A stretch of 64,000 nucleotides of DNA from contig BCKZ01000018.1 of assembly GCA_001600815.1 (NCBI GenBank), positions 1 to 64,000 on the forward strand, in the 5' to 3' direction. Positions 18,260 to 19,940 of this stretch are shown in pieces. Numbering within the stretch: position 1 is the stretch's first letter; the number at the start of each line of letters is the position of its first letter. A program made the translations under genes and the position numbers. The notes under the pieces are model-generated. The model did no database searches. It was given only the letters and a program-made list of their open reading frames with translations, and was not told the origin of the DNA. This DNA comes from Alloascoidea hylecoeti. Taxonomy: Eukaryota.

Positions 18260-19940
18260 ATATTTGGTCTGGAGATTTTTATTATGTAGTACAATTTATA
18301 TATATAGAAAATTCAGTAACTATATCAAGTTTCTGGTCTAAACAAGTAAAATATTTAATCTACAAGTTTCAAAAACAAGAAGAAACTAGGCATTCGAAGG
18401 AGTTCTTCATTTTTGGTTAAATAATTGCGTTATCGATATCTCAGACATTACTGATAATGATTACATTTAAAGTTTCATATCATTTTCGTTTTATTATTCC
18501 CTGATTCCTGAGTAATTTAATTAATCCTCATGCATCATTTAAACTCCATTTTCTGTCATACTGTTAGTTAAGTTTTATATCTGATATTAATAGTAATACG
18601 TATAACGTACAAATGCAACAATTTATTCATATGGCTTTAGCTAGTGCCATAAGGTTTGTCTTCCTATCCCATGCAATTGTCAAAATAAGTGGTATAACTT
18701 TGGGGAACATCAACATAGAATAAAATCGTCTTATCGACACCAGCGTAATGTGACATTGCAGATAACTTTATTTAGAAATAAGTTGCATAAATAGAGTTGC
18801 AACATGTAAGACCGATGACAGTAGTAAAATAAAATATCCAATGGTAAATGTTAAAGTTCAAAGTGCCTGCTCTCTCAGTTGCGCCAAAACGCTAATTGAC
18901 TCTCTAGTGAACTGTCGGTACCGACTTTTGGTACTGGAATACCTTCTTCAAGTTCACATAACTTGTTAAAGCACCTTTTCTAACATCAATGTAGACCTGT
19001 AGATCAACTGCTGTTGATCCCAGCAAAATAGTCATCACATTGTCCTGCTCTATAACTTCTCTTTCCGACAGTGTTTTCTTTAGCTTTCCATTATCCTCAT
19101 AAAAAGCTGCTCCTTCTGTCGTCGAGATATATATTCAATAATAAACAGATAATAACTACGTTTCAAAGATGACAGATAACAAACAGTAAATAATATAGGG
19201 AATGGCGAAAAAAGCTTTGTAGAACAGTTATAAATGTTATGTAAAGCTAAATAAAACTTGAGGATCAGAAGTTTAAAAAAATCATATAAATTGAAATATA
19301 GTTAGTCAATTATATTTTTATTTTCAAAATATACCATATGATTAAGATTTTATTCTATCGGGTCATTATTTTACTATTTTGTTATGTTCTTATTCAATTT
19401 ACTTCTTGTGTAATTAATAATCAGTAATCAAGCTACCGAAGAGGATGTACGAACACTACGTAGACAGTGCTATACACCCACCATATTATTACATATGTGA
19501 TGATTTTAAGGATATTTTCTATTCCTTTTTGTATTTTTGTGTGTATAAATAAATAACGCTCACTGGAAACAATCCTTATAACTTGGACTTTAATAAAAAT
19601 GTGTATTCAAATATATTTAACGCCGTACTTGATTGTTTAACATGATCAATATATGCTAAATATTTCGATATTTCTAATAATTAAACTTTATTTTTATTTT
19701 CAATAATGAGACCTTATTTCTATATCAACTTGAAATTAAGTGATCCTCAATTCTTTGTTAATTATGTATGCATATGCATAGTACTGAAGGTTTAAAGTAA
19801 ATGCGGTAACGGCGCTCAAATAATTGAATATGAGTTATCTAGAAACTTATATGGGAAAAAGGCTCTATCTTGATTAAATAAAATTTATCTATCAATCTAT
19901 GAGGCTCTATACTCTCACATTGATTTACAATTGTTATTGA
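18260..19940 (+). repeat. OPT upstream region, diverged direct copy of 44870-46285
   Basis: Collinear shared blocks such as taattgcgtt, ggggaacatcaacatagaataaaat, tcacttcttgtgtaatta, catgatcaatatatg, ttgttaattatgta, tgatttacaattg. Ends are approximate. Confidence 0.85.
18849..19140 (-). mobile_element. Diverged TRIM LTR carrying a 211-bp copia gag insert (18916-19126)
   Basis: 18849-18915 and 19127-19140 match the two ends of the 93-bp LTR; flanks GTAAA/ATAAA (TSD with one mismatch); the insert is an open frame encoding a Gag-like peptide. Confidence 0.8.

Follow-up and report, generated by a model that had tools for sequence, protein, structure and literature searches.

A solitary long terminal repeat (LTR) at 18849-19185 on the minus strand of contig BCKZ01000018.1 of Alloascoidea hylecoeti was found to be chimeric, in that about 12 bases of the LTR are replaced by about 211 bases which derive from the gag gene of another retrotransposon, one of Ty1/copia type. 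The whole stretch of DNA that was analysed, positions 1 to 64,000 of this contig, is referred to here as the window. The chimeric LTR is single-copy, and the gag piece lies in the same sense as the LTR that carries it. We regard reverse-transcriptase template switching between two RNAs packaged in one particle as the most likely origin of this structure, with a probability of roughly 0.45, and we weigh it below against DNA-level repair, decay of a larger insertion and artefact.

The inserted unit measures 337 bp and is surrounded by a perfect target-site duplication, GTAAA at 18844-18848 on the left and GTAAA at 19186-19190 on the right (5/5 bases). Read in the sense of the element, that is on the minus strand, it starts with 45 extra bases (part A, 19141-19185; sense start TGTT), which form the true 5' end of a long-form LTR. 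These are followed by 14 bases (part B, 19127-19140), 12 of which match the first 14 bases of a 93-bp LTR found elsewhere in the window, and then by the gag-derived piece (18917-19126), a single odd base at the downstream junction (18916) and the 3' 67 bases of the LTR (part D, 18849-18915; sense end ...AACA). Part D is 89.6% identical to both LTRs of a miniature element at 15.6 kb and 92.5% identical to a solo LTR at 24.3 kb; in these other LTR copies, 12 bases occupy the place taken here by the ~211 bases (210-216). It can be seen that the unit has the features of a solo LTR: TGTT (19185) and AACA (18849) at its ends, a 5-bp duplication, repetition with differing flanks and absence from a paralogous stretch of the window. 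It is not an LTR of the short form, because the TGTTGG-like TATTGA (19140-19135) is internal, with 45 repeat bases beyond it.

To place these boundaries, contigs of public sequencing runs were compared over 18400-19600: X1 and X2 (one organism, two studies), X3 (a wood-decay metagenome) and X6. Part of the stretch is contained in seven of the listed runs, and four of these have half or more of its words. Depths were summed over contigs and translate only approximately into copy numbers. Part A has a depth of ~50-70 times that of the flanks, and in three runs the loose ends differ at 19185/19186. There is a further loose end at 19140, where other copies of part A continue into letters resembling part B. 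No other copy of part A was found within the window. An old paralogue of 18339-19943, at 44930-46288 on the plus strand and 64-71% identical to it, is without the 337-bp unit; the empty site (~18849-19185, at 45.2-45.5 kb) is approximate, since it lies in a diverged paralogue and not in an allele. Three runs also contain, at unique depth, a joint of 18726 to 19368; its reading as an empty allele was rejected, as it represents the window's own paralogue. In one contig of X3, 18904 is joined directly to 19125, with 43 or more letters to either side of the joint. This contig is made up of D, B and 27 or more bases of A and has no gag between them, from which it follows that an uninterrupted long-form LTR exists elsewhere. 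We conclude that the carrier is the long form of the LTR, of roughly 45 + 93 bases.

These results alter several points of an initial annotation of this DNA, which had described a unit of 292 bp (18849-19140), a GTAAA/ATAAA duplication and, as carrier, the LTR of a terminal-repeat retrotransposon in miniature (TRIM) itself. By repeat depth, duplication and paralogue the unit extends to 19185, the two copies of the duplication are the same, and the carrier is a long-form relative of the TRIM LTR with 45 more 5' bases. The replacement of 12 LTR bases, which it had assigned to 18916-19126, stands, with the gag piece starting at 18917.

As the initial annotation had stated, the insert has an unbroken frame on the sense strand of the element, running for 76 codons (18904-19134); taken by itself this is weak evidence, since 272 out of 5000 shuffled versions of these 231 bases were equally open. 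When the frame was searched with phmmer (HMMER) against 1.84 billion representative proteins, a protein of 116 residues, P0002, was matched with E = 2.2e-11. P0002 is the only clear relative among five matches, the other four being repetitive, unrelated proteins (E 6e-5 to 7e-4). A tblastn comparison of P0002 with the window then gave two matches: the insert, with 33 of 37 residues identical (89%; P0002 residues 67-103, E = 2e-18), and the open reading frame (ORF) 355-2 of a second element at the start of the window, with 36% identity over 101 residues (E = 2e-13). The gag piece corresponds to approximately residues 67-136 of Gag in P0002 numbering.

When the first ORF of an LTR element begins within the 5' LTR and reads on through the adjacent primer-binding site, it is the gag of a Ty1-type element, and this arrangement is seen directly for ORF 355-2. 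The ORF of P0002 begins 11 codons ahead of the primer site, inside its LTR, and P0002 has the primer-site-coded residues HGSGA, as does ORF 355-2. Because P0002 matches both the insert and this LTR-started ORF, the insert is tied to gag through it, by the HGSGA motif together with the 36% identity. After residue 103 P0002 departs from the frame of the insert and of its donor contigs, which stay in frame, by +1 or -1. For this reason P0002 is probably a copy of that gag family in which a frameshift has occurred. P0002 forms a cluster of one and comes from a single 5003-bp contig. Taken together, the protein comparisons support the interpretation that the insert is a sense-strand piece of copia-type gag. 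Its family is not that of the element which begins the window, so that there is a second copia family, as the initial annotation had proposed. The likeness to the Gag at 1-355 that had been seen by eye is not significant when the 76-residue frame is compared directly with the window-start Gag by BLASTP (E = 24), and it holds only by way of P0002.

Curated models gave no help in this assignment. Pfam returned no family for the 76-residue frame or for P0001 at E up to 10, and none for P0002 at E up to 0.001, so that the search against Retrotran_gag families which had been suggested at the outset came back empty, as it did for the gag models Retrotran_gag_2/3 and TYA. In the Atlas, all ten of the ten best named clusters were copia-type gag N-terminal families, with scores of 0.86-0.89; we treat this as a lead only, which points to PF14244, PF13961, PF14223 and PF17241. 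No longer relatives scored in word-based protein searches with the frame, with P0001 and with a three-sequence alignment, which are weak negatives, and the alignment profile matched four PDB sequences, all unrelated (E 0.048-0.19). No relatives of the peptide were found in a metagenome contig collection, where none of 261 pattern matches was confirmed. The Gag sequences are thus nearly without relatives in the protein libraries searched. An exact match of the last 21 LTR bases (L001, 1001-1021) was set aside as a chance match to a GC-rich coding region of an unrelated metagenome contig.

Although no donor copy was found within the window by blastn or tblastn of the insert, the public runs contain one. 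Contigs bearing the gag piece were present at ~21-33 times the depth of the flanks in 3/3 runs, X1, X2 and X3 (218 against 6.6-8.4, 1290 against 61, and 208 against 9.4). Over 18917-19120 and 18938-19132 these contigs show 6-7 differences in 195-204 bases and no gaps, which makes them ~97% identical to the insert, and they extend past it by 30-61 letters upstream and, in X3, by 655 letters downstream. When the upstream letters were read by hand in the frame of the insert they gave ten residues that are the same as residues 57-66 of P0002, and downstream of the insert the frame remains open. Of four positions of difference common to the lists of all three runs, two are synonymous, and at the other two the donor encodes the residues of P0002. 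We conclude that a multi-copy donor gag family is present in the same genome. The run X6, which comes from another organism than X1 and X2, covers only 18400-18528 and says nothing on the insertion.

We then considered whether the chimera is real. In both X1 and X2 a contig extends from unique flanking DNA, across the LTR part, to within the gag piece (18400-18964) and shows 0 differences, and a contig of X3 covers the other junction (19091-19171), again with 0 differences. Those that cross the 18915/18916 junction do so at the depth of the unique flank (8.4 in X1 and 61.4 in X2). Since junction-spanning contigs without differences occur at unique depth, the chimera is real and single-copy; one run may be the window's own source, which leaves at most two or three independent confirmations. 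No other copy of the chimeric junctions, whether at further loci or at the second end of an element, was seen among the contigs listed for X1, X2 and X3. The initial annotation had named a normal multi-copy LTR as a finding that would refute it, and the chimeric form is not one. A join of repeats made in assembly, an accidental likeness to gag, or a gag-bearing LTR ancestral to the 93-bp form were also considered, and the region is indeed made of repeats, the open frame by itself counts for little and Pfam is empty; with the junctions spanned in X1, X2 and X3 and with the P0002 match drawn from 1.84 billion proteins, we consider explanations of this kind very improbable. The ancestral form in particular was rejected, as the gag piece is ~97% identical to its source, the LTR part only 90-92.5% identical to the other LTR copies, and the junction single-copy; the opposite pattern of identity would be expected of an ancestor.

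The two junctions differ in kind. At the upstream junction, ATATAT precedes the 12 bases in the other LTR copies and precedes gag in the donor, so that the crossover lies somewhere within 19127-19132, where ATATAT is common to both; the base preceding the shared ATATAT is that of the LTR. At the downstream junction the donor matches as far as 18917 and the LTR takes over from 18915, with no shared bases, and the base at 18916 fits neither the LTR copies nor the donor contig. Of the two short motifs that had been put forward as microhomologies, ATATAT is found in the donor and ACAGTT is not.

We propose that reverse transcriptase, while copying the U3 region of the non-autonomous RNA into the minus strand, would have left its template at LTR base 27 (short-form numbering), perhaps with the addition of one untemplated base at the point of exit (18916). 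Synthesis would have continued for ~211 bases on the gag RNA of the other family within the same particle, and returned to U3 at the shared ATATAT, so that 12 bases were skipped. Plus-strand synthesis would then place the chimeric LTR at both ends of the element, integrase would insert it with duplication of GTAAA, and later recombination between the two LTRs would leave one behind.

Several observations fit this proposal. Microhomology and extra bases at junctions are usual for reverse-transcriptase switching, and here a sense insert has six bases of microhomology on one side and a single odd base on the other. Template switching accounts for the sense orientation, because copy-choice between plus-strand RNAs requires it, where chance would give it one time in two. 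An RNA route also suits the target, because the LTR family makes up only ~1% of the genome and yet has been reverse-transcribed several hundred times. Co-packaging in one type of particle is plausible because one 12-base primer site is common to at least three element families. On the other side, nothing shows that the chimera was ever mobile with two such LTRs, as no second copy was seen. There is microhomology at one junction only, and the orientation is worth just 2:1. All three runs carry the same allele, one of them possibly being the source of the window. The link between donor and carrier runs through P0002 only. Finally, the same anatomy results from end-joining capture of Ty complementary DNA (cDNA) at breaks, according to the accessible part of PMC11372161. 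These points all weigh against template switching; the double switch inside a particle that had been proposed from the outset fits the anatomy, which is equally well matched by capture at a break.

Repair at the DNA level would begin with a break in a resident long-form solo LTR, at which ~12 bases were lost and a 211-base piece of gag cDNA was captured by end joining; in a variant, a templated copy of genomic gag would take the place of the cDNA. In either form co-packaging would be unnecessary. We think this possible but rather doubtful. It draws on a route by which Ty1 cDNA pieces enter breaks in Saccharomyces cerevisiae (PMC11372161, in its accessible part), and would need no lost partner LTR for a chimera that is single-copy. 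An uninterrupted long-form LTR that could have been broken does exist elsewhere, and six bases of microhomology at one junction, with none plus an odd base at the other, are what such repair could leave. It would, however, require a break to strike an LTR family that is only ~1% of the genome, a rare hit unless regions prone to integration are also prone to breakage, and would make the sense orientation a 1-in-2 coincidence. The allele as it was before capture was also not seen in three runs, although these may not be independent strains.

That the structure is the decayed remnant of a larger insertion is unlikely. In this case a full-length donor with A+B...D LTRs, or a donor nested in the LTR, would have been reduced by two deletions, and the perfect duplication around the unit would suit an element that was once full-length, and a deletion by slippage could account for the ATATAT of the upstream junction. 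Part A has about twice the depth of the gag piece (50-70 against 21-33 times the flanks), as expected if A belonged to the LTR of the gag family. Two independent deletions would nevertheless have to leave stumps that sum to a whole LTR less 12 bases, and a nested insertion would be expected to create a 5-bp duplication of its own, not to delete 12 bases. Moreover, part D is probably not the donor's LTR, because D lacks an ATG and has an in-frame stop whereas the ORF of P0002 starts in its LTR. In yeasts, LTR-LTR recombination usually eliminates elements well before they decay piecemeal.

The chimeric LTR may further be a record of a miniature-element RNA and a Ty1/copia-type RNA in the same particle, and so may name the helper of the miniature family; we advance this tentatively, and consider the odds to be somewhat against it. 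That the donor was the helper of the miniature element, as the initial annotation had it, is something that nothing shows; the primer site is common to at least three families. The use of helpers by non-autonomous LTR elements has mostly been inferred from LTR similarity. A chimera made in the particle would provide direct, if anecdotal, evidence as to which RNAs travel together, would indicate that short non-homologous switches occur in natural yeast retrotransposition, and would name a helper for a miniature family with roughly a thousand LTR copies in a budding-yeast-like genome. Should the chimera instead be a patched break, it would be the natural counterpart of the laboratory capture of Ty cDNA at induced breaks. 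Either way it is one fossil of a known process, and the more useful by-product is the description of a very abundant miniature element with a 93-bp LTR in a yeast-like genome.

Four copies of the 91-93-bp LTR are present in the window, at 15623-15715, 15926-16018 and 24277-24367 and in the chimera at 18849; the first 37 bases of the LTR as initially annotated (from 18849) have four matches in the window at up to three mismatches, and none of 100 shuffles gave any. The copy at 24277-24367, on the plus strand, is a solo LTR of the short form with flanks AGTTA/AGTTA. The two at 15.6 kb, 93 bp each and 100% identical, belong to the miniature LTR element of TRIM type (15623-16018, minus strand, 396 bp, flanks TTATT/TTATT), which is probably a recent insertion because its LTRs are identical. 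Its internal part of 210 bp is without a long ORF (none of 100 codons); the primer-binding site lies at 15914-15925 and the purine tract at 15716-15727. The element thus combines short LTRs, primer site, purine tract, duplication, a length below 1 kb and absence of gag and pol, which are the marks of a TRIM. In three runs the depth over the last 67 LTR bases is ~900-1000 times that of the flanks, in agreement with four copies per 64-kb window.

Some further features of the miniature element were noted. Its LTR has an ATG in the frame of the primer site, with one stop just ahead of the LTR end as the sole interruption, and this ATG in a 93-bp LTR may be a relic of a gag start. The internal part contains GGTTCGAGTCC at 15885-15895 on the minus strand, 29 bases past the LTR, which agrees with the B-box consensus of RNA polymerase III (Pol III) promoters. 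An A-box-like TGGCGCAACTGG lies in the LTR at about 15952-15963, also on the minus strand. Judged by these motifs, the element is possibly comparable to the TRIMs bearing Pol III promoters that the accessible part of PMC10886601 describes. No transfer RNA (tRNA) genes or Rfam families were found in the window with ARAGORN and Rfam.

The second Ty1/copia-type element is represented by its 5' end at 2-528 on the minus strand, with an LTR at about 303-528 and a primer site at 291-302 that is identical in its 12 bases to the one in the miniature element. Its gag ORF begins at 355, 53 bases inside the LTR, and extends off the window. The four N bases of the window fall in 1-528. The start of this LTR, at about 528, falls in the last codons of a 66-codon ORF (493-693, minus strand), which the insertion of the element may have truncated. 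The pol gene of neither copia-type family was found within the window. We do not claim that the 93-bp LTR, or parts A+B, and the window-start LTR derive from one another, since alignments show, past the first bases that they share, short patches only; an apparent match of part A to the window-start LTR falls partly in a host ORF.

The window as a whole is AT-rich (30.8% G+C) and yeast-like in appearance, and its genes, among them those for an OPT transporter, a ferric reductase and a phospholipase D, are intron-poor. Old duplications of non-coding sequence within it pair 18339-19943 with 44930-46288 and 15476-17362 with 49527-49915 (64-83% identical), the second copies lying in ~9 kb (43.7-53.0 kb) without an ORF of 100 codons. 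A pair of direct repeats, ~200 bp in length with 82.6% identity, lies at 50968-51189 and 52601-52805, at a spacing of 1.6 kb. TG...CA ends are not obvious in either; the pair could have arisen by local duplication, or represent the LTRs of an element that has since decayed.

The elements of the window can be set beside the Ty1-type elements (Pseudoviridae), with which they share TG...CA ends, a 5-bp duplication and a gag ORF that runs from the 5' LTR across the primer site. The primer site that directly follows the LTR likewise appears complementary to the 3' end of initiator tRNA-Met. They are unlike the Ty1-type elements of budding yeasts in that the Pfam gag models are unmatched, in that the Gag has almost no relatives and in that there is no pol in the window. 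The miniature element at 15623-16018 resembles the fungal TRIM Helenus, as far as the accessible part of PMC10886601 describes it, in its short LTRs, primer site, purine tract, 5-bp duplication, non-coding nature and many solo LTRs. It differs in that no tRNA was detected by ARAGORN or Rfam and in its LTR, which at 93 bp is shorter than usual. Among the papers listed in literature searches, as judged from titles and abstracts, no description of a TRIM from budding yeasts was found.

Capture of foreign sequence by small elements has been described in plants. A survey of TRIMs (10.1101/010850, in its accessible part) reports fragments of genes in 30 TRIM elements, which belong to seven subfamilies, and refers to a single previous case. 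In such captures, of which Katydid/TRIM and Bs1 of maize are examples, a small non-autonomous element has likewise acquired a foreign piece that is in sense and exon-like. From what these sources give, the plant pieces are exons of host genes, found for the most part in the internal region, and read-through transcription is held responsible for them. In contrast, the LTR studied here has taken up the gag of another element, inside the LTR itself, with 12 bases replaced, and is present as one solo LTR.

Template switching is reported to build complex LTR elements (Sabot and Schulman 2007, PMC1950507; PMC6894440). In the recombinant elements that the accessible parts of these two papers describe, co-packaged RNAs were fused by copy-choice and a normal target-site duplication was formed, as we propose here. 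Those cases are large homologous fusions of related elements, whereas the chimeric LTR would need a short double switch, between sequences that are unrelated, with six and zero bases of homology.

For capture at breaks, the accessible part of PMC11372161 reports that Ty1 cDNA of all regions of the element was found at breaks in S. cerevisiae, mostly as inserts of ~45-300 bp, that 1-3 extra bases were added by Pol4 and that capture was strongly raised in stationary phase; a captured Ty piece is described there with a small deletion of the target, 0-6 bases of microhomology and one extra base. The chimeric LTR is like these inserts in size, in the small loss of target, in microhomology that is short or absent and in a single filler base. 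The yeast captures, as far as that account goes, are experimental and occur at induced breaks, whereas here it would be a natural, fixed event inside an LTR, with the insert in sense. Earlier work on the capture of Ty1 cDNA at breaks was reportedly done by Moore and Haber (1996) and by Teng et al. (1996). We conclude that both mechanisms, non-homologous copy-choice as in retroviral or retrotransposon transduction and the capture of filler DNA at breaks, are known, and that what is new lies only in the partners, namely a miniature-type LTR of a yeast-like fungus and the gag of another element.

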